33,783 bases of DNA from Conidiobolus incongruus B7586 (Eukaryota), in NCBI GenBank assembly GCA_000697335.1, contig JNEM01011368.1, positions 1 through 33,783 on the forward strand, read 5' to 3'. The stretch's first letter is position 1; each line of letters starts with the position of its first letter. Below, one piece after another: positions 1 to 33,783 of this stretch. A model generated the notes under the pieces. That model was not told where the DNA came from. It made no database searches and was given only the letters and a program-made list of their open reading frames with translations. The translations under genes and the position numbers were made by a program.

Positions 1-489
1 AATAACTAATTTCACTTAATAAAATATTTAAAATTATTTTTAATATAAATATAAATCTAATATTATTTTATTCTATTCATTTTTAAATTATAAATTTTTC
101 AACAAATTGGATATTTCAAATTATTTGAAATTTTAATTATAGTAATCAAATTTTATTCGATCGAAATATCAATTTTAATTAAATTGTTAATAATTTATAA
201 AATAAATTCAATTTGTGTAAATTATTAAAAATTATATTAATATTAATTAGAAAAAATTTTCAAATATTATTTGATAGTTTATTATGTATATACAGAGCAA
301 GACTTAAATTTCAAGTAGTCATAGTTGATCATTTTAATGGTAAATCAGACAATATTTTGTAATTATGTTGATTTGATTTAAGATTACAAAGGTGAAAATT
401 AAATGAGTAATTCAAATGATTAAGTTGCCAAATAAATTAAACTGATGCAATTACATATTTAGTTTATTAATAATTATTATACAAACAAT

Positions 490-2722: not shown

Positions 2723-3643
2723 ATATAATGAACTTAATTCGTAATTTAACTATTTTTAGGTAATTATTATTAAATTTCAAAACTATGATTTATGGAAGTT
2801 TGATTATTTAAAAACATTACTTTTTCTCTTGATTTATATACTTGAATAAACAAAGAATTATTAATTGAAAGCATATCTTTTTGAACAACTTAAAATAGTT
2901 AACATTTACAAATTGATTCAAATGAGGTATACTTTATTAAGCTTTGACTTAATAAATATAATAAAATATCAATAATGCAATAAACTATAACTTAAATATT
3001 TATAATCCGATTTAAAAATATTTATCAAGAATACTCTGTTATATTTTAATTCTAAATTTACCACTCAATTAGCTTTATTCAATTGAATATTTGTGTGACT
3101 ATTTTGATAAAATAAATTCTTAAAAATGAGAAATTTAAATTATTTTTTTATTAAATTTTATTGAAAAAAAATCTAATAAAAATTATTTAAATTTTGATTT
3201 CAATTAAAAATTTCAAATTAGAAATAATTTTAAGAATTCTTAATGATAATATATATTATTAATTAAAATTTATAAAAATAATAACATTTATTTTGAAATA
3301 ATAAATTAATGGAAATATTTAATAATTTGATCAATTGATTAAAAATATCCATTGATTAATGATGTGACTATTGATATATTTAAATAAAAATATATTACAT
3401 TAAGTTTTTAACTCTACAAACTTAAATTCATATTATTGACTAGAGTTACTAATATGTATTTGTATTAAACCAATCCCATAAATTCTATCTCCCTTAATAT
3501 ATTTCAATTTAAACTGATCTGATCTGAAGTGGAAATAATTTAAATACTGATATTATTTAATATTTAAAATTCCAAATATTTTTTATAAAAGAATACAATA
3601 ATATTTAAATTAATTTTCAAATTTAATTTCAAATCATATATTG

Positions 3644-3695
3644 ATATTATAAAAATAATATTATAATATTATAAAAATAATATTATAATATTATT
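3644..3695. repeat. Tandem duplication of a 22-bp AT-only unit
   Basis: ATATTATAAAAATAATATTATA at 3644-3665 and 3666-3687, plus a partial third copy. Confidence 0.6.
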
Positions 3696-3999
3696 TTTTT
3701 TTGACCTATTAAAACTTTAAAATATTAATATAATTCTATATAATTAATAAAAAAGAACAGATTAAAAATTTTGATGAATAAGTTAAATTTCAAATTATTT
3801 AAAATTATTTTCACTAAAAATTTGAAATAGATAAATAAATAATATTCAAGTAAATTAAAGATATATTAATATTACAAAAATTTCAAAATTTTAGTATATT
3901 TTAGGTTATTCAGTTATAATATATATTTTTTATTTTTTTATTATTGTACTTAGTAATTCTTATAGTTTGAAAGGTTTAGTTTTATTAACATTTCAAAAG

Positions 4000-5170
4000 T
4001 TATTCATAATACCAAATCCTCAATATTCTTATCAATAACACTGCTGAATTAAAAAAATTAAAATATATTATGAATAAGTTGAATTTAAGTACTTGGAATA
4101 TTCAGCTGAAAGTGCCTCCCAGCGTCAAGTCTACGATTTTGAAAGAGCTGAAGTTGAATCACAGTGCGATATTCAATTATTTAAGAAGGACGATACAGGC
4201 TGAGAGGTTGAAGGTTGTGATGGGTGGAGAATTGGGGGAGAGTTTTCATAATAATTATCATATGAGTAAGGAGAATTTGGTCTAGTATGGTTTGGTTGTT
4301 GCGAATCCGAGTACGATTAAGGATATTACTATTGGTAAGACGCATTTAGGTCAGGATATTCGAGGTGTTGTGATTACTAATAATATCGAGTCTAAATTGA
4401 CAAATTGAAGCCAAAATTACTAATTCATGGGGGTCAACATGCTGGGGAGTGAATTACAGTTTCTTCCGCTATGTTTTTTAATTGAGAAATTTATCAACTC
4501 CAAGTCCAATATTTTAGATATATTTCAGATTATTCTGATTCCTATTCTGGACGTGGATGACTACGACTATATTTAGGATCAGGATCGATTTTGGGGCATG
4601 AATAGACAGAAAGATCCCAAATCCAATCATATGGGAATTGATCTCAACCGGAATTGGGGCGAGCATTGGGCGCCATCCACTAGGAATCGCTGTAATGAGA
4701 TATACCCTGGGAGTGTAGCTTTTTTAGAGCTCATAATCAAAGCTTTATCCCAATTTATTTTAGATCAGAATAACTTGATAAGATATTTGAATTTGCATGC
4801 GTACAGCCAAGCTTGGATGTATCTGTTCAAATATACTTGTGATCCCAAATTGAAAGTTCAAAATAAATAATATGTGCTATCTTACCAGATGTCGCTTTCT
4901 CTAGCTGAATTTTGAAATACAAAATATCATGAGTTTGGACTTATTTGCAATACAATTTATGCAGCACACGGCAGTTCTGTGGACTAGGCCAATACTCAAG
5001 ATAATATCAAATATTCATCTACTATTGAATTAAGAGATAAAGGTCATTTTGGCTTGTTTTTAACTTAGGGACAGATTATTCCAACTGGTAAGCAGTTGAT
5101 GAGGGGATCGATGTGCTATATTCAAAAACTTAAGCCACTAGTTTATAAGTTTAAAATCGTAAAATATTGA
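4000..5170 (+). pseudogene. Zinc metallocarboxypeptidase (M14A, carboxypeptidase A/B-like) pseudogene; 5' boundary approximate
   Basis: M14 motifs appear in order: HGGQHAGE* (HAREW-like, TGA 4450-4452), DYDYI*DQDRFWGMNR (TAG 4574-4576), GIDLNRNW, CNEIYPGS, LHAYSQ, IYAAHGSSVD* (TAG 4985-4987) and TIELRDKGHFGLFL...QIIPTG. There are multiple stops and frameshifts. Confidence 0.9.
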
Positions 5171-6225: not shown

Positions 6226-7477
6226 TTTTTAATATTATTCTAAATGAATTTTAATTGAATAACTTTGAATTAATAAAAGTGAATTAGAAGGTTTTTATAA
6301 TTTAAAAATTAATTAAATTGTCTCAATATCATATGCTAATTAATTAAATATTCCTAATTTGTTTAAATTTCAATCATATATAAATATATTATCAATAAAA
6401 TTTTGGAATGAAAGTATATACAAATTTGACAGATATTTTTATTAATCAAAGAGATATAAACAAACTTTTATAATAATATCTTAAAATAGTGTTTATTTTT
6501 TTGTAATGAATAAAAGCATTCGAATAGCAATGGAGTTAATTTAAAACTATTCTACTTGAATAAAAAATTCGAATTTAAAACAATTGAGACAAAAATTAGT
6601 TCAAAATTATAATGAACAAATTTTTGGTATTTAAGAGAATGTTAAATCATTTTGATGAAGTAAAATAATAAAAATAACGATATGATAATTATATTCAATA
6701 TTGAGGTTAGTGAATATAGTATTATATTTATAGAAAAGTTTTTAAAATTCTGGGAAAGAAAACATAACCAATAGAGATTACTTTTAATAGTTACTTAAAG
6801 AATTTGATTAAGAACTTTATATATATATGTATAATATAAATTTCAAATTCAACTAAAACAAAAAATAATCACCTAGGTCAAATGAACTGAGGATCATATA
6901 TGTGCTAGACAAGTTTGGTAATCAACTACATTACGAGACTTTATTTTGCATTTCAATATTCTGATGATAATAGTTGATATTCATTGTCACTTTATTTTTA
7001 TAAAAACTTTTCTTGAACATTATTTAAATTTTTTGAGCAATTCAGTCTATAAATATATATATATCATTTTATATTTAATCCAATTATACATTTCAGAATT
7101 ATTTAACCTATTGCTTTTATTGAATCAACATATTATGTTTATTACGATTTCATATTAATAATCTTTAATATATTTTATAACAATTTTTAAATATTGAATA
7201 TATATATATATATATAGATTCCCTATTAATCTTTAACTCCAATTAGTGAATTAATTTAACCTATTTATATAACATTTAATAAATTAATGTCATTAAAATA
7301 TATTTAATTTTTATAAATAATAATTTATTTTATCAAAAAACTAAACAATATACTTTATAAATTCTATAATAATAAATTATTCATAGTATTAACTGTATTA
7401 TTTCTAATTTCATTTACTATTCAACTATAAAATTGAAATTTTCTAAAAAATTGTGAAAGGACCAGTGTTCAAGATAA

Positions 7478-7908: not shown

Positions 7909-9166
7909 ATAACAAGGAATTACTGTATATCTTAATAGCTTGAAAAATTTATTTCATATAATATGCTCTATTAAAATATTCACTTAATTGATTTATTTCA
8001 ATTATTACTTATAATAATTTCAAAAAAATACTAAAACAAATACCTTAAATGTTTTTTAATAATTGCTCTACTTATTAATTATTGAGATATTAATTCAATA
8101 TATTTAGCTATATATAGTTTTATTTTTTCCAAATGTTGACTTGGTCATATATTTTAATAATATAATCTGAAAAATAAATTTGCTTTTATTCTATTATTAA
8201 CATGTACATCTAATTGGTTAACAAGATACTATTTTATAGTTAAATATTAGATTCATATCTTATGTTGGGTAATATAAATTTAAAATATCTTCTTATCTTT
8301 TAATTAATTTATATTATTGATTTAATTAGACAGTATTATGTTTATATATAAATTTTATTAATAGTGCAATATCATTCTGAAGACTATATATCTGTATAAA
8401 ATTTAATTATTAAATCTTAGGACTTTTTGATATATAGTTATTTTGTAACTTCATTAATAAAAATACTACAATTAACAAAATTTAAAAAAAATCATATTTT
8501 TAATATCAATTATTTTAAAGATTATTTAATAAAAATACAGTTGAAATATATTTAATATGTACAATGTTAAATAGTCTTTTTAAACTCAAGTTGATTTATC
8601 CAATTGATTATATTCTATAAATAACAAATTGATTCTAATTATATATTTATAAATATGATTAATATTACATATTTACAATTTCGAATTTTGATTAGATATT
8701 TAATCAAGTCCAAATTTTTCATTAACGAGTTGTGTCAGGTATATTCACAAGGAAATCAGAGGCTCGAAAATTTCAACTTTCAAAATCGAAATTCAGATCA
8801 ATCAGATATTTTCTGATATTGACAATATTTAGACTAAAATGCCATAAATCTAATTATATATCTAAAAAAGTTAATATAAAATTAAATTATTAAAAAATTT
8901 CTTATTTTTTCAAATTGAAAATGCAAAAATCCATTTGTATAACTATCGAATAACAGTACAATCAAATTTTTCATTTAATAATATAAATGTCGATAATGGA
9001 ATAATCGGTGAATTTACTAAATATATTAGATAAAATGGACGATATCTTAATTGATCTTAAATTACACTTGAATCTAAAGCTGATAAGTATCAACTCATCC
9101 ATACATTACTGACTTTATCAGGAACTTTAGATTACAATTTGTGTTATCAATTTGAAAAATCATTGG

Positions 9167-14569: not shown

Positions 14570-17265
14570 AAATTTAATGATTGCTATGCTAGTATGGCCA
14601 TTAGTCATAGTTTATTACCAACAATTGGGTTGACATTTTTTATCCATGGATCCTTTAAATTTATTTTTATCAAATAAAATATTTTATGTGAAATATTATA
14701 TAATAGTTTAATCGTTGATTACTTTTCCGAAATATGGTTCTATATCAAAACATTGCGATTGGTACAAGCTCATGATGTTACCAAAACAACAGGCTACAAT
14801 ATTAATTAAATTTTATTTGGTATATTTTGAAGGTATTTGTCCCCAAAAATCACTTGAAACTGAAATTCTACCTGTATTAAAAATTATTGGTCATGCTTTT
14901 AAATATTTTGAAATTATCCCTATTGATAGAGTCTATTTTAATGATGAGAGATGTAAATATATTTTTCGCTTCAATATTTGAATATTTAAAATATATTGCT
15001 AGTAGTTGAATGCATCAAACAATATGGTCTTAATGAAGATGTTCAAAAACTCCAACCTCATTTAACTTTAAAGTAACACTTAAAAATTTTATAAAAAATA
15101 TTGTTTATTTAATGTAGATATTATGGGTTGGCGGCTTTAGCATGACTATTCAAGTAAATAAAACACACAAATTACATTAAATTTAATAATATTGGTAGAT
15201 ATATGGAATTTTATATAAAAACCTTTTTCCCTCAAAGTTCTGAACATATTGTATGTACAGATGCAAAAGGTAAAATAATAGCTAAATTATGAGATCATCT
15301 AAATATTGGTTATGTAAGTTCTATGATAATTTGTAGTTTAATTTGAAAATAAAAAACTATTACTAAAAAATATTAGATCCGTATATTTGTGCACCAATGA
15401 AATCATTAAGAGATATTGATACTAATGCTTTTAAACATTATTTTTGAAGATTAAATTCCATTATTAATACCTTTATTATTTTTATTGAAAAACGATGCAA
15501 TAGACAATACCTCTACAAAAATGTGAGCAATGAATTGAATATTAGTATTGATATTCAATTATTAAAATGGTTTAGTCAATCACCTGAAATTCAACATTAA
15601 TCAATTATTAATTGGTGAATATAAATGAAATACAAATACATTTTCTAAATATATTTATACGAAAATACAGTGGAAACTAGACTGAACCGTATTGAAGGTA
15701 AGGTTTTAATCAAATTTAAAAATAAAACTAAATAATAACTTTGAATATTATCCTATCCCATTATGTAAACTAAATTGATATATCCATTGTTAAATTAAGC
15801 GATTATTTAAAAAATTATCAGTTTGATTAATAAATGTGCTCATAATTAAATCAAATTCAAAAAACAGCAGTTAATAATATCAAAGTTATTTGTATATGAA
15901 TCATTTCATGATGTAGATTTTATCAGGAAATATGCATTAGATATCATTTCAAATTTTAAAAGCCTAATATTTATATAGGCGAATAACGAAAACAGTTCAA
16001 TCAAGCATTTGGAACAAAATTTTATATTAGTTTCAAAAAATGGATTAGATTTAATTGCAAATATAATTCAACTTAAGTATATTTAAAAATCATTTGATTC
16101 AAAATATATATGAGATTAATAATATCTTTAAGTCGATTGTAGAAATATGAAATATGTATTGTGAAAAATACAGGAAATAATACAAACTAATCAATGAAAA
16201 ATAAATTGTCTATTAAATGTTTTTTCAATCGAAACCATTGGTTTGAATAACCTTTCTCAATCAAATAATCCAATATATATTATAAGGTTAATATAATTAA
16301 ATTCTTCATTAGGATAGGATTAACTTAAATAATGTGCAAATAATAGCCTACGATGCTGGTAATATAAATTAATTTTTCAGCCTGAAAAACTTATTCAAAA
16401 AATATTGATAATATATTTGCATTAGTCAATGAATATAAATGTATTTTTATGATCTATGCTTAACATATATTATAAACACAAAATTAGCTCAGCTCTCATT
16501 AGCATCTCAACTTAAATATATCACTAATTACGAGTATCAGATTCAAATTTCAAAAGTTCAAAGTCGTATTAATTACCTAATATTTTTCCAAGAGGATCTA
16601 AAAAAACAATATGGCATATCTAACAACCTTAGATATAATAGGACATTAAATAATATTGATCAAGTACAGATTATTCAATAGTCTGAGTTAAATGAAGGAA
16701 TGAAGCATTCACTTGATGAAGTTGATTTAATTTCAAATGAGTAATAGGAATTTTATCAACAGTTCTAATATTGAGTAAAATCAAACAAAATATAAGAATA
16801 TTATATAAGCTCCCTCAATCTATTTCATTCCTTGATATGATGGTCAGTTTCGCAATTCATGCTTCCAAACATTGTTTAGATATTTAGCATTTGAATATTA
16901 TTTCAATTTTTAATTATCGTTTATTGAAACTGATATTTGGGAAATACGACAATAAAAATTTCTGATATACAATTTTATATAGTGAAATTCAATCAAAATG
17001 TTCTCCAAACAATATATTATTCTCTTAGAATAAAAGCTTTTCAATCATAACTTGACCTACTATGAGTGGAAAACAATTTTCTTAAATCAAGTCACACTTG
17101 AATATATTATAGCAAAAATTAGAAGATAGTAAATATTTTTCAATTTTTCATTTATTAGTATCCCAGTAAAATTTAAAAATATCAAACTAAATAATCAAAT
17201 ATTAGATTATTATTCTCAATAATCTGAATTTTTATTCAAATTTATCATCTCAACAAGAGTTAGAT
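14570..17265 (+). pseudogene. MSH4: MSH4-like (meiotic MutS-gamma) multi-exon pseudogene; boundaries approximate
   Basis: Collinear fragments: IIPIDRVYFNDE; KYYGLAALA*LFK|YMEFYIKTFFPQSSEHIVC (15119-15270, with GT-AG introns); TVETRLNRIE; TYSKNIDNIFALVNEY; LYKLPQSISFLDMMVSFA (16801 onward). The ATPase region reads PNNILFS*NKSFSIIT*PTMSGK, then after a frameshift TIFLNQVTLEYIIAKI (17005-17125). These recall MSH4 KYYCLAAAAALLKYVE, LYKLSDTVSMLDML and IITGPNMSGKSTYLKQIAL. Confidence 0.82.
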
Positions 17266-17269
17266 TGAA

Positions 17270-18515
17270 TTTAATATATAAGTATAGAAATTAAGAAATG
17301 GCAAATTTTTTAATTTCTGATCTTTCAAACATATTATATATTCAATTTTAATTATTTATTTATTAAAATATTTTAATTTTAAAATTTACACTTAAATTTA
17401 ATTATGTTTAAATTAGATAGCAATTATTAAAAGGCTTTTATTTTTATATCTTTAAAACTTAACTATAAACCCTTTAAAATTATTTAAAACTTATAAATAA
17501 TTTATAAAGATATTATTTTATTTAAAACTACTATATATCACTAGATTTGTAATTTTAAAGTTAAAAGGAATATTATTTAAAATTTGTTAAAATTTAAAAG
17601 ATTAGTTTCTATTATTACTCTTTTATTTATTAATAATATAAAAAAATATTCAATAATATCTTTTTATTTTTGTTAAAAAATTATTAAAGTAATTTAATAT
17701 TAATTATATAAGCATATTATATATATTTAAGTTTAAACTTAAATTAATTAATAAAAATATATAATAAATACTTTATAATTTAACAAAAGCTTAAAAAAAA
17801 ACTAAAGTAACTATAGTTAAATTAAATTTATTAAGGTATAATTAAAAACAAAGGTTTTTACAAAAAATATTTATAATTAATAAATTTTAAATTTTTTTAT
17901 ATAATCTTTTACTTAAAAATAAAACAAAATATTAAGTTAAATTAATCCTTTTTATAAATTTTAATAAATAAACATTTTAAATACAAGTGAATGTTAATTA
18001 TTATAATAGATTATAATAGTATATGGTTTTTTTATTTAATACCTTAAGGAGAATTAATTAATAACAAATTATATATTATTTCTTTATATAAAATAATTTT
18101 TAAATAATGTTTTTAATATAAATTAAAGATATATATTATTTTATATAATAATTATAAAATATATAAAGTTATAAAAGATTTTTTATATAAGAAAATAGAA
18201 AAAGTTATTACATCTAGTATATTTACTTAATTATCACTTATATAATTATAATTGTTTTAAATAATTAAAAAAACAACTTATAAGAAAAAAATTCCTATAA
18301 ACAAATTAAATTAATTTATAAAATATCAAATTTTAATCCTTAATAAAAAAAACTATTTTTCAAATATTAAAAGCTTACTAAAAATATAGAAAAAAGTTAT
18401 TAATAATAAAAGAGGCTATTAATTTTATATTATTTATTAATTTTTATATATTGTTTATTAATTTATTTGTTTAATTTCAATTTCAAAATTGTAATATTAC
18501 TTTATATTAATATTT
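17270..18515 (+). mobile_element. Hypermutated mariner (Tc1/mariner, DD34D-type) transposon; transposase relic ~17404-18422
   Basis: Reversing C->T and G->A changes recovers mariner motifs in order. TTIYH*ICNFK...NLLKFKRL ~ W...F...DLPRSGRP (17527-17604); *ILYNLTKA*K ~ WIPHNLTEAQK (17765-17797); FLQKIFIINKF*IFLYNL ~ ..TIDE.WI..YDP (17855-17908); MLIIIIDYNSI...IP*GELINNKLY; ILYNN ~ ILHDN (18138-18152); *KKLLHLVYLLN ~ WE.LPHPAYSPD (18196-18231); NIKSLLKI*KKVINNKRGY* ~ GI..LP.RW.KVI...G.Y (18363-18422). Length ~1.25 kb. TIR boundaries are uncertain. Confidence 0.88.
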
Positions 18516-19792
18516 TACACCATACATTAAGTTCAAATTTGTTTCAAATTAAAGGATTTAGTTAAAATATTTGGTTTAATATGATATTAAATATTATTTA
18601 CTTTTTATCAATTTGGTATTTCTCAATATTTATTAAGATTATTGTTCACTGTATTCAAAAAATTAATATCTTCAAAGGTAATCAATTCTAATAAAAATAA
18701 GAATATATTAACTTTTATCATCTATTACATTTTTTTCAACACATTTTACTGGATCCTCAATTTATTTTTTGAATCATTCAACTGTAAACACTCCAAAGTT
18801 TAGCATTGTAGTATATTTTAATACCAATGACTTTTGAAATTATTATTTATTCATAAATAGAAATTAAAATTTCAGGGCAAAAATGTATCACTTAAAATTA
18901 TAATTTTTCCAGTGGATTTGAGCAAAAAAAGACATTATAGCAAGTTTCAAATGATTTTAAATTGAATTATAATTAGAATTTCAAGATTAAACTGACCAAA
19001 CAGGTCCGATACGATCTTTTATAAATGCAGCTAGTAGAATCTCCAATGAGATAACTATATATAAATTGGTTTCATAATATTAATAGAGATGTAATATTAG
19101 TCTTGACAAGGGAAATCTAGTTATACGATTTTTGTATAAAGCCAACAAAAATATTATAAAATATCAACATTCAAATATATAATGAATAAATACAATGTTA
19201 ATAAATACTCATGGTTTCAGATAGTATAATTTATATTATTAAAAAACAAAAATGGGCCAAGGATTAACAAGACCAAATTATTAATTCAAGCCAAAGATAT
19301 GAACTAATACACAATATAAGTATATATATATATATCTAACATGATTAACTTGTAGGCTTATCCTAAACATTTAAATTTATACTACATATAATTGGAAATT
19401 ATCTTTTATATATATTCACTAATATAGAAGCTTCCTGATTTGAAATATAGTTGTATGGTTATATATCGTAATAGTTATAGTATCAAAACTTTTTATGAAA
19501 CAGAGTACTCAATTCATCCCTCATTTTGAATTAAATCACTTAAAATTTATTGAAATAAGTTCAATTTCTTCATCAATATTAGAATACAAAGATAAATAAA
19601 GTCACTGTTTAGTTACATGTTAAAAGAGAAATTCGGTAAAGGATAATAGTATAACATCTATATTAAATAAATATTTAATTGAATATAAATAAACATTATT
19701 AATGGGAATTAATTTTTGTGATAAAAAGTTACACAAATATAAAATTTCTAGTATGTCAGGTTGATAAACGAAAGTTATTTAAAATAAATATT

Positions 19793-20283
19793 TTAAGCGG
19801 AAGGGTTTTCCGTTTTTTTTGGAGGTTCTTCTGGGGTAGTTCCAATCTCGAGATCTATTCTTTCTTTGGCTCTGAAAATCTTAGACTGTAGATAAAATGA
19901 ACCACCTTTAGTTGGGTCATTAATATTAAATAAATGCTCATATTTCTAAAAAACTAATATTAGTATTTGTGTTAATAGATTTTAATAATATTAATAATAA
20001 ACCTTTTTAATCTCTTCAACTTTGGCATCCTTTTCAACATTCAAAATTTGATAAGCTTCTTGTAAAGTAATACCAGTTTGGCGGGAAATAGGGTCATTAG
20101 CAGTTTTTGCGGCGGCTGAAGCACCTTGAGTGGCAGCATCTATATAAATTATTAGTTAATATATTAAAAATAAAAAATTTTAACCAAATTACTAGCAGCA
20201 GCAACTTTATAAGCGTCAACAAAAGCTCTTCCCAAAATAGTGGCACCACTGATAATTACTTGTGCAATAGCTCTAGCAGACAT
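19793..20283 (-). CDS. PAM16: Mitochondrial import motor subunit Pam16/Tim16 (~126 aa; exons 20283-20193, 20139-20003, 19945-19793)
   Basis: Spliced translation [31 protein letters not shown]...[13 protein letters not shown]...[30 protein letters not shown] matches the Pam16 J-like domain. Introns are GT-AG and in frame. Confidence 0.95.
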
Positions 20284-20992
20284 TATTTATAATCTTTTTT
20301 TAATTATTAAAATAAATAATAGTTAAAGGTTTAGTTAGATTTAATTATCTATTTAATTCAATTAAATGTAACAAAGAATTTATTTATATCTGGAAATTCG
20401 ATTGAAACATTTATAATATATTTTAATATTATAAAATTATGGGATATTTTGATCAATTTTAATCCATCAAAAATATTCTAGAAACTAAAAAAAGAATTGA
20501 TTTATAGAAATAAAGAATGATTTCACAAAAAAAATAGATTAACTAAAAAAATATACCTTATGTTTGAAATAATGCTTAGGGTGAATTAAAAATTTAAGTC
20601 AAATTATTATCTTAATATTACCGTTATATTTAAATCAAAGGTATAAATAAATATCTCACAATTGTTAATAAAAATATTTAATTACATACTGCTAATCAGA
20701 AAATTATGAAATTAAAAGGGTAAAAGAATCGATACAAAGTGTTGATAATATAAATTGTTTGATGAAAATAATTAATTTTAAACTAACCTTTTGTTTTTTA
20801 AATATTAATTATATATCAATTATTGAATAAATTAGTTTTAAGGAACTTAAAACCAGAAAATAGAATCCCATAAAAGAAAATTTTAGAAACAGAATATTTA
20901 TAAACTTTGTTAATTGAAAAAAATATGCATTAAATATACAAAAAAATTTATTCATTAATAAATATATTTAATATTAAATTGTTTTTTCGAAA

Positions 20993-30194: not shown

Positions 30195-33100
30195 AATAGC
30201 ATTTAATAAATGTATTGATTAGATATAAACAAAGACTATGTGGCAATTTTATATTTGGTAATGATTTAATTAAAATTAATATTGATAAAATATATAAAAT
30301 CAAAATAATTCACTTTGAATAAATGAAACTCATTAATTATAATTAAATGTAAAAACTTAATTATTAATTCTTCAAAACAAGCAAGTTGATTGGATGATTA
30401 GGAACCAGTCTTTTTCTCATCTCTTAATCAAGTTGCCACATTTTTAAAATCATTTTGTTGTCACATTATATTATTAATTATTAGCATTACTTTTATCCAT
30501 TTTATTTTCTAGAATGCCCACTTCACTCCAGGATATGTTAAACTGCCTATTAATAGCAAAAACTCCTGATATATTTTTCAATTTAGAACCCATCAGATTT
30601 TGAAGTACCAAACGTACTTTGTAACACTTGGTGAACCTGTATGGTGCATGTTTCCAGTTTCAAATTTGCTTATGTTTTTTAATCAAAATTTAATTATATT
30701 TGAATTATCATGAACATCCGTTTAAATTATATTTTAGAACCTTGAAGGTGTATTGCTATCAAAAATATTTTTTTGTTGCTCAAATATTGGGAAATTTTTC
30801 GGGATTCAAAAGTAGTTTGTCTTAACTCAATAAAATCATAGCGATCACAGAGTAATTAAAGTAAATCTGAATTAAGATTATAGTGTGTGATAAGTTTAAT
30901 GATGCTGGAAAAATATAATAGCTTAAGAAAATCCATTTTTATTATTTAAAAATTCATTTGAACTTTGGGTTTGATGCTTATGAATGATCTAAAGTTATTG
31001 ATATGCTTATTTAACGTACAATACATTGTGTAATTATTATACATTATTGTTTGTTATAAAATAAATAAACTATCTGTATATTCAATGAATTTATTAGCTA
31101 TTAATATTTGAAACCATTCCATTTAATTAAATATAATTTAGAAATAAAATGAGGGTTTTGAAATTTTAACAACTATCCGAAAATTTTCCTTATCAACCAC
31201 TAATCTTTCATTACTTTCTGATTAATTTGCGGTTTTATTTACAGCAAATTTATTGAATAATTTAATAAACAAATTTAAATTGATCTGAATTCTAATCAAA
31301 ACATTGTATACTTCAATATCATGGTTTCATGGTTTCATTGTTCCATATTTGAAATATATTTCTTTGCAGATATTAATCATTTAGTGATCTATATTAAAGA
31401 GTAACCAGTATCCTAAGCAGTGTAATAAGAAATAGTACACCCAAACAGTAATTACAAATCAAACCATTTTGAAGAGTGTTTTGATATTTGAATCATATAA
31501 TCCAAAGTAATGGTTAAATGATCATATTTTGTTTCTCTTTATTAATTTAATCGAGTCATGGGCTACTTTCTATTCTGAACAAGCCTTTAACCGCTGATAC
31601 CATTGCTATTTGAAAATATTATAGTCTTTTTAGGTATATGATTTTGCTCTGTTTTGAAAAAACTTTAAATACTATTTCCTTATTATCTAAACTGGTAGTG
31701 TCACAAAATCAATATCTGGTCCTATATTCTCAAAAATTATCTCATAATTATATTCTAATATTGTTTGAACCATACGGATTAGCACCTCTAAGAATATCTC
31801 CTATCATGATGCTTTTAAGCTAGAACATTATTTTTAGATTCTATATCCATTATTTTCCAAATTTAAAATAAATATTTGAATATAATACAAAATTAATTAA
31901 TTTAATATAATCAATTAAATTTGAGCATATTAACTTTAGAATCTTAAGTTATTTTATCTCAATTTTAAGTTGTTTTAGAATAAGCCAATCAAAGCTCTGA
32001 TTGTATTCAATAGACTTATATAATGTTTAATCAACTTTATAAATTTCAGTTGAGAGTGAATAAATTAATATTCATCTATTAACTCGTTTGTTGATTTTTA
32101 GAAAGTTTGTGAAAGGACTTATCTTGCTTGTTTCCGGATATTGGATTCAATATTCAACTTGTGTAATATTCCATGATTAAATATTTAAATTATTACAACT
32201 GTACAAATATAGAATATATCATCTGATTATAACATTAAAAACATCTTATAGTTCCGTTTTCATATATTACTTATTATTTATACTTTAATTAAACAAATAT
32301 AATAGTATAGTAATTCGATACTTTATATAATTTTGTTAAATATACAAAGTGAGTTTATAAATGGTTATATGAAAGCTTGCTAGAAAATATAATAAAATCA
32401 ACGTCAGTATATTACAATGGATTTTTGTAAAATATTCAGCTAAATCAATGAGATACAGATTAAATTTAAAGATCGCATTATCTATTACTGCATGCGATCA
32501 AAATTAAACTATGTACATTATCGATTGCCACAAATTTGGCAGTATTTTAACTTTGACTCAGTTTTTAAATTATTTTCAACATTTCTCTACACTCACTAGA
32601 TATAAAAGGAACAAATAGCGAAGACAATTATAATATTGTGAAAAACAATCCCAGTTTAATTGATTATTAAAAATTTGAATAATTAGCCTTTGAAACAGAT
32701 GTAACCAAATATAATTGAATTTATTATTGAAATGCACTTTAAAATTAATGATTGAATAATTATTATTTTTTGACTAATTTGGTAAATTGAACAACATAAT
32801 AATTATTTTTTCTTATTTCAATTAGTTTATTAAAATATAACTTGAATTTATTCTACTTTGCCTGAATAAATAAAACATCAGGATCAATATTAAGTAAATG
32901 GATATTAGATTTATTTTTTAGATAATTCGACTTTTATTTTAAATTATTTAATATACAATAATTTTTGTTATGATACACAATAAATATTTAAAGTGAATAT
33001 TTTATAAATTTTTATCTATAACTGATATATTAAAATATTTTAAATCTATAATTCAAGTATAAATTTAAAATAATCATTATTTTGAGAAATTTCCACAGTT

Positions 33101-33389
33101 TTGGTATATATAAATAAATATCTGAGTAGTATTAACAAATATTTACCAAATAGTAAATGACTTTGTAAATAATCAGTTATTCAACTTATTTTGAATAGTG
33201 GAGTATAATAAATTATTGATATAAAAAGTATTTTTTAAATTTATTAAATATTGATTCAGAAATATGATATAATATAATCATTAATAATGTTTAATTGAAA
33301 AATATATTACTTCATAATAAGCATGATATGACAATATATATGAAAACATACTATATTAAATAGGGATACCTTTTATTATATATATATAT

Positions 33390-33783
33390 GCTAAATATTA
33401 TAAATAAAAGTATATTATTTATTTTTTTAAAAAATTATATTTGGTATTTGATATTTTTATAAAAATTAAATAATAACAAAATTTTAATATTAAATATTAT
33501 ATAGTTTTTATATTTAGTATACAAAAATATATAATAATTATAAAAATAATTTTATCTTTAATTATCAATAACTTTTTACCAAACTTTTTATAAATCTTTA
33601 ATATTTAAAAAATATTGATGATTTTTAATAACTAATATTTGATTATTCAAATAATTAAATTTATTTCCCAGAATTTCCTTTCCAATAAGCATATTCTTGA
33701 ATTAACCAAAATAAAAATAATTATATATATTATAATAAAAAAATATCTTATATATGGTAGATTTTTTTTGATTTATCTTTATA
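33390..33783 (-). mobile_element. Second hypermutated mariner copy (3' part only; continues beyond the window)
   Basis: A minus-strand frame at 33726-33556 reads YNYFYFG*FKNMLIGKEILGNKFNYLNNQILVIKNHQYFLNIKDL*KVW*KVIDN*R. It aligns with the C-terminus of the 17.4-18.4 kb relic (YNYNCFK*LKKQLI.KKIPINKLN...QILIL...YFSNIKSLLKI*KKVINNKR). A segment near 33390-33420 resembles the end of copy 1. Confidence 0.72.

Follow-up and report, generated by a model that had tools for sequence, protein, structure and literature searches.

A dead, transition-eroded mariner-type transposon in a Conidiobolus-like fungus

The window, that is, the whole stretch of 33,783 nucleotides that was analysed, carries fungal genes for a pentafunctional AROM protein, a two-finger GATA factor, A49, a Zn2Cys6 factor and Pam16. 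The closest named match of the AROM protein is that of Neoconidiobolus thromboides (63%), and a quick 25-row tree groups it with Neoconidiobolus and Massospora (SH-aLRT 100), the window protein branching before them. A49 has 75% identity to a cluster that contains a Conidiobolus coronatus protein. Exact look-ups of three proteins of the window gave no match in the collection searched. On the strength of the AROM placement and the A49 identity we conclude that the host belongs to the Entomophthorales, and its genus is likely Conidiobolus. The preliminary description of this DNA spoke of a fungal genome, and the gene set, the AROM tree and the A49 match all agree with it. A fragmented M14 carboxypeptidase-like segment was also seen, at 4010–4870 on the + strand.

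At 17270–18515 on the + strand lies a dead mariner-type element, delimited by alignment, depth and GC content. Its left end at 17270 is putative, and its right end falls at about 18510–18515. The GC content is 10.3% between 17270 and 18515, as against 21–23% in the flanks. The relic transposase reading frame (17404–18422, +) has an ATG at 17404 and a TAA at 18420, and is broken by many stop codons and about four frameshifts: near 17646, 17988 and 18192, and one within 18290–18335. This copy is a full-length relic that can no longer encode its transposase. A search of the element for terminal inverted repeats gave a best end-to-end match at the level of chance (187 of 500 shuffles reach its score), and exact and tandem repeat finders returned low-complexity matches and no terminal repeats. 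A TA follows directly after 18515, and this dinucleotide is common in the surrounding DNA. Five other stretches of the window (1–290, 3100–3990, 7050–7460, 8000–8700 and 32930–33450) also have 10–15% GC and almost no CpG; none of them gives a mariner score, and they may be relics of different repeats.

Judging from its flanking sequence, the element appears to lie within a broken gene of the MutS family; the right-hand part of this gene was seen by eye only. A P-loop segment of a MutS-family ATPase, containing stop codons and a frameshift, lies just to the left of the element at 17005–17124 (+). Its score against bacterial MutS is 29.9 bits with the decay parameter at 0.4 (shuffle maximum 18.8) and does not rise above shuffles at 0.05; the segment has no Pfam match. 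The right flank gives 16.3 bits against MutS, where the shuffle maximum is 17–19. A likely MutS-family pseudogene with stops and frameshifts extends over 14580–19200 (+), on both sides of the element, the P-loop segment being the only part that scored; going by its motifs, this pseudogene may be MSH4-like. A short open reading frame in the left flank (14712–14978, +) has no family match and no usable match in an atlas search, and PDB searches with two flank pieces returned nothing meaningful. The right flank (18600–19300) also occurs in a second, diverged form in the sample that is described below, at a similar depth (19 against 16.8 in sequencing run X1); this form has inserted bases near 18618–18621 and several unlike stretches of 70–110 nt. 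This is possibly a second allele, nucleus or paralog, and might represent an intact gene or an empty site. The first intact gene to the right of the element is the intron-containing Pam16 gene, at 19790–20290 on the − strand.

When the six raw frames of the element were searched with stops read as X, Pfam returned no families. The DNA was aligned as codons to protein profiles with a custom aligner that models decay by G>A and C>T changes and allows frameshifts. Reference mariners were collected by a motif scan of metagenomes, which gave 116 loci; 16 ORFs were taken into the first profile. Against this 16-protein profile the + strand scores 75.2 bits and the reverse complement 13.5, and none of 100 dinucleotide shuffles reaches 75.2 (mean 16.1, s.d. 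2.0, maximum 22.0). A 109-protein profile gives 97.5 bits (shuffles 15.4 ± 2.0, maximum 23.9). The alignment is colinear from 17410 to 18419 with profile positions 4–350, running from the HTH region through the C-terminal motif over about 330 codons. When the same aligner was moved stepwise along the whole window, scores as high as 69 bits appeared on either strand at borders between GC-rich coding and AT-rich DNA. This is an artefact of the background model, and therefore only the shuffle and strand controls are used here for claims about scores. MAFFT alignments were excluded where fragments of the window had been misplaced. Of 48 well-conserved profile columns, 39 can be reached through G>A and C>T changes alone (12 are identical), a count that leans towards these changes because the alignment itself was optimised under that decay model; 14 of the same columns can be reached through G>T and C>A, and random codons would give about 10. 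The other nine cannot be reached by G>A or C>T, and the residues that stand at the FWD and LAP positions are unusual.

The individual motifs of the family follow in order along the + strand. The relic of the N-terminal DNA-binding (HTH) region, at 17404–17760, aligns almost without gaps to an irritans-like profile. The profile alignment then places a WVPHEL-type linker at 17765–17785 (WIPHNLT/WIPHDLT when transitions are allowed for), in which W, P and L are reachable by transitions at 17765, 17771 and 17780. The first catalytic Asp motif, similar to TIDE.W, is at 17873–17890 with codon AAT at 17879; the second, similar to LHDN, is at 18141–18152 with AAT at 18147; the third catalytic codon, AAT at 18244, lies within an HPAYSPD..P.DY..F-like motif at 18211–18258. 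A C-terminal W.KVI...G.Y-like motif, identified by profile alignment, occupies 18387–18419. The preliminary description had listed these motifs as mariner-type, and every one of them is found colinear and in place, within an alignment that scores 75–97 bits where shuffles give 15–16. In the YSPDL-type motif H, P, Y, S, P, D, P, D and F are reachable by transitions; the L and A that follow D are not, nor is the S that precedes the third Asp, so the motif is a variant. The AAT at 18244 is followed by TAT, and both codons also occur in a second copy (below). AAT can be reached by transitions from the Asp codon GAT and not from Glu codons; the third catalytic residue, as had already been proposed, was probably Asp, and would have been altered by a G>A change. 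The second and third Asp codons are 97 nt apart, whereas DD34D requires 105. In run X2, a consensus of the loose ends of 40 contigs behind 18171 is two codons longer than the copy in the window. Sister copies thus supply six of the eight missing bases, which makes DD34D likely; the final two would be explained by the local frameshift. The 97 nt given in the preliminary description are confirmed, and its explanation of the short spacing, a small deletion plus a frameshift, fits the six bases and may hold for the last two.

Related transposases were scored as controls. Among 32 loci, taken from a contaminated metagenome-assembled genome rather than from fungi and including two with no ORF of scorable length, no Tc1-like, pogo-like or IS630-like ORF exceeds 23.7 bits, and the sole mariner locus scores 59.1. 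The two Tc1-like ORFs reach at most 15.6 bits. By this comparison, and with mariner proteins scoring up to 92 bits (below), the element is nearer to mariner than to Tc1, pogo or IS630. Two candidate assignments were rejected: pogo/Fot1, for which ten DDE_1 (pogo-like) control loci score at the level of noise (at most 19.7 bits), and Tc1 (DD34E), where the AAT of the third codon is not derivable from GAA or GAG by transitions and the NPIE-type Glu was not found. A motif fitted to the PCDY variant of the element found two loci in prokaryote genomes, of which the full-length one scores 59 bits and is not close; all four motif scans of viral contigs gave no matches. In one prokaryote genome record, matches to mariner and Tc1 transposases stand beside at least 20 of the DDE_1 (pogo-like) type, likely through eukaryotic contamination.

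Contigs from two runs (X1 and X2) of one sample, from a single study and probably the source sample, were aligned to 17400–19600 at 80% likeness. All runs listed as containing this DNA belong to that study, and no RNA run is among them. The matching contigs number 9,671 of 493,904 in X1 and 12,784 of 1,490,999 in X2. Summed contig depth, which is not a copy number and to which unrelated contigs can contribute in AT-rich DNA at this likeness, ranges in X1 from 6,060 to 65,022 inside the element and from 24 to 132 beyond 18510, with a drop from 28,127 to 40 between the bins 18436–18509 and 18510–18583. The element is thus highly repeated, and the figures point to a family of hundreds of copies or more. 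A single contig of 1,673 nt spans the right junction with no differences, which shows that the element is integrated in host DNA at this end. Two runs under another organism label had 0 and 1 matching records, which is no proof of absence. At the edge of the window (33458–33783, − strand) blastn found the 3' end of a second, diverged copy, which is about 69% identical over 316 nt and is cut by the window end. The alignment score is 282 (200 shuffles: mean 142, maximum 180); against the protein profile this fragment alone gives 16–17 bits, which amounts to no score. Compared with the first copy it has indels and transversions, retains more G, and has neither a TpA excess nor a RIP-index signal. 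Given its identity of about 69%, its indels and its transversions, the family has diverged branches.

The decay of the element is dominated by transitions. The profile score is highest at a transition probability of 0.7–0.8 (88–93 bits); with unbiased GC>AT decay it is 57.6 bits and with transversions only it is 16.4. Some 75–80% of the ancestral G and C appear, on this alignment, to have been lost through transitions. Places that vary among the copies are transitions in 254 of 315 cases in X1 and 255 of 321 in X2. The element contains no CpG, and its observed/expected CpA ratio is 0.66, compared with 1.04–1.21 in the flanks. Of 67 windows, 2 have a composite RIP index greater than 0.1, and both lie within the element. 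The genes of the window are intact, while its intergenic DNA outside the element is equally AT-rich, in this one window. Intergenic stretches elsewhere in the window reach 10–15% GC without a TpA excess, and the second copy lacks a RIP-index signal; we therefore consider that a general drift towards AT contributes.

A donor was sought among 351 mariner proteins, comprising 84 metagenome ORFs, 150 representatives of 38,641 matching clusters, and 117 more. None of those scored is a close relative, the best reaching 92.0 bits. When the decay of a known element was simulated, it scored about 400 bits against itself, 200–240 at 60% identity, 95–127 at 40% and 68–92 at 30%. On this scale nothing scored is nearer than about 30–40% identity, so the search neither identifies a donor nor hints at a recent jump. 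Among 120 listed hits 18 are named to organism, all of them arthropods, a result biased by the use of non-fungal mariners as queries. No organism is named for any of the ten best scorers; among the 150 cluster representatives, the highest score that comes with an organism name (73.5 bits) belongs to a mite protein. P0365, the relative that scores best, matches Mos1 with an E value of 8e-48 and also SETMAR structures, and Sleeping Beauty only at E 0.001; its clade is presumably irritans-like. Single irritans-like proteins have a median of 57.5 bits as against 50.4 for others, and random 8-protein profiles score alike (85.3 and 83.9), so that neither subfamily is preferred.

It is barely credible that the element is an artefact, made up of chance motifs in AT-rich DNA or brought into the assembly by animal contamination. 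Its very low complexity and the lack of a Pfam match in the raw frames might suggest chance, but none of 100 shuffles comes near the score, which is specific to one strand and colinear over 330 codons; contamination is at odds with the bridged right junction and with the fungal genes on both sides. We consider this reading to be already largely refuted. The cause of the decay is a more balanced question. RIP-like, repeat-targeted mutagenesis in a host outside Dikarya is in our view probable. A possible alternative is that deamination of methylated or unprotected cytosines, together with a genome-wide bias towards AT, wore down an old repeat. The complete absence of CpG is what decay through methylation predicts, CpC and CpT sites are hit as well, other non-coding stretches have reached 10–15% GC, and the available text of a kingdom-wide screen reports RIP-like signatures in Ascomycota only (PMC12543289). 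However, about three quarters of the G and C have gone with only some four frameshifts and few transversions, and within the window CpA depletion together with TpA excess is limited to the element. Index-based RIP has moreover been reported, with major caveats, for 24.2% of the Zoophthora radicans genome (PMC11105155, in the text available).

As to the origin of the family, the most economical explanation and, we think, a probable one is that it was gained long ago from an animal. The mariner host table of PMC7325037 (supplement file 3, parts 2–3) lists animals, Trichomonas and a few doubtful bacteria and has no fungal row, fungi being listed there under Tc1 and pogo. The available text of PMC11544213 divides the hosts of mariner and of Tc1/pogo in the same way. 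The preliminary description had called mariners animal-type, which accords with this table; a search of openly licensed literature found no DD34D mariner in Entomophthorales. An unlikely but arguable alternative is that mariners have been inherited in Entomophthorales or early fungi since before the genus arose and are absent from surveys centred on animals. The equivalent of only 30–40% identity to any scored mariner, the unusual FWD and LAP residues among nine unreachable conserved columns, and the diverged second copy would all suit such a history. 'Tc1 mariner' DNA makes up 12% of Entomophthora muscae and 13.9% of Entomophaga maimaiga, given at a level above the family (PMC11105155), and Tc1/Mariner elements have been counted in Conidiobolus genomes through Pfam domains including Transposase_1, again not split into families (PMC5751038, as far as its available text goes). 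Against this stand the mariner table with no fungal host, the frequent horizontal transfer for which mariners are known (PMC7325037), and Massospora cicadina, which is effectively without DNA transposons (PMC11105155). The preliminary description proposed transfer from an arthropod. As a recent event involving a particular host or prey this is improbable: the host's order consists of arthropod pathogens (PMC11105155) and the best organism-named cluster representative is from a mite, but a donor with 80–100% identity would give 270–400 bits where the best of 351 gives 92, and the copies differ by indels and transversions and have diverged to the level of subfamilies. For an old gain, ecology and the known host range would make arthropods the likeliest group of donors. 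What does hold from that description is a DD34D-like mariner in a fungus, as seen in the profile scores, the triad codons and the fungal host genes; it made no mention of a high copy number or of RIP-like decay in a non-Dikarya fungus.

Mariners are bounded by terminal inverted repeats of 20–30 bp and duplicate a TA target; their transposases bind the terminal repeats, excise the element and insert it at a TA. By family membership, the live element would have moved by the same cut-and-paste route. We lean towards a history in which a mariner family, likely DD34D, entered the lineage of this near-Conidiobolus host from an animal long ago and spread into many copies, before a RIP-like process silenced it by transitions that replaced most G and C with A and T, leaving the dead full-length copy described here. 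The stronger statement, that no genuine DD34D mariner family was found in a fungus before this one, and that it is derived from an arthropod, present in hundreds of copies or more and erased by a RIP-like defence in Zoopagomycota, is somewhat doubtful. The element is a real addition to the mariner family, from a host in which none was expected, and horizontal transfer is a reasonable though unproven inference.

Given that the host table of PMC7325037 has no fungal host, a large family of mariners in a fungus associated with arthropods would amount to the transfer of a transposon from an animal to a fungus. Such transfers lie outside the scope of a recent preprint, which, in the text available, screens for transfers between fungi and finds that fungal Tc1 and pogo elements have often moved between them (10.1101/2025.06.16.659975). 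RIP outside Dikarya is disputed, the index signal in Zoophthora (PMC11105155) standing against the ascomycete-only screen (PMC12543289), and a RIP-like defence in Zoopagomycota, if true, would move repeat-directed mutagenesis far beyond Ascomycota. It would also account for the failure of standard annotation to see such elements: hypermutated mariner relics escape counts based on Pfam. With its many copies that can be aligned, and an ancestral protein that can still be recognised, such a family makes it possible to measure the direction, context and rate of mutation directly. A broken gene that may be meiotic, next to a RIP-like relic, would also merit attention.

The element resembles known mariners (Mos1, Hsmar1/SETMAR and irritans-like elements) in its length of about 1.25 kb, its single ORF of about 340 codons, its HTH region, WVPHEL-type linker, D-D-D triad and YSPD motif. 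It differs from them in its fungal host, in its FWD and LAP positions, and in having been killed by mass transitions. The Tc1 (DD34E), impala and pogo/Fot1 elements that are common in fungi belong to the same superfamily and also move by cut-and-paste, whereas the third codon of the present element fits Asp. The nearest precedent near fungi for exchange with animals is that of transposons between microsporidia, as animal parasites, and animals; the microsporidian Tc1/mariner consensuses in the available text of PMC4202319 fall into Tc1, pogo or separate groups and not into mariner as here. In its decay the element shares with Neurospora RIP C>T and G>A changes on both strands of the repeat. 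CpA depletion and TpA excess, further marks of RIP, are seen in this copy and, for TpA, not in the 326-nt second copy; the single-copy genes nearby are intact. RIP depends on a methyltransferase of the RID/DIM-2 type and on the sexual cycle. The decay of the element differs from Neurospora RIP in that its host lies outside Dikarya and that the sequence context is broad, taking in CpG and CpA and also CpC and CpT. A RIP-like signal has been described in Zoophthora and Entomophthora, and the present host falls outside the genera in that RIP analysis (PMC11105155); the evidence for decay here goes beyond indices alone, resting on alignment to a protein family and on sister copies.
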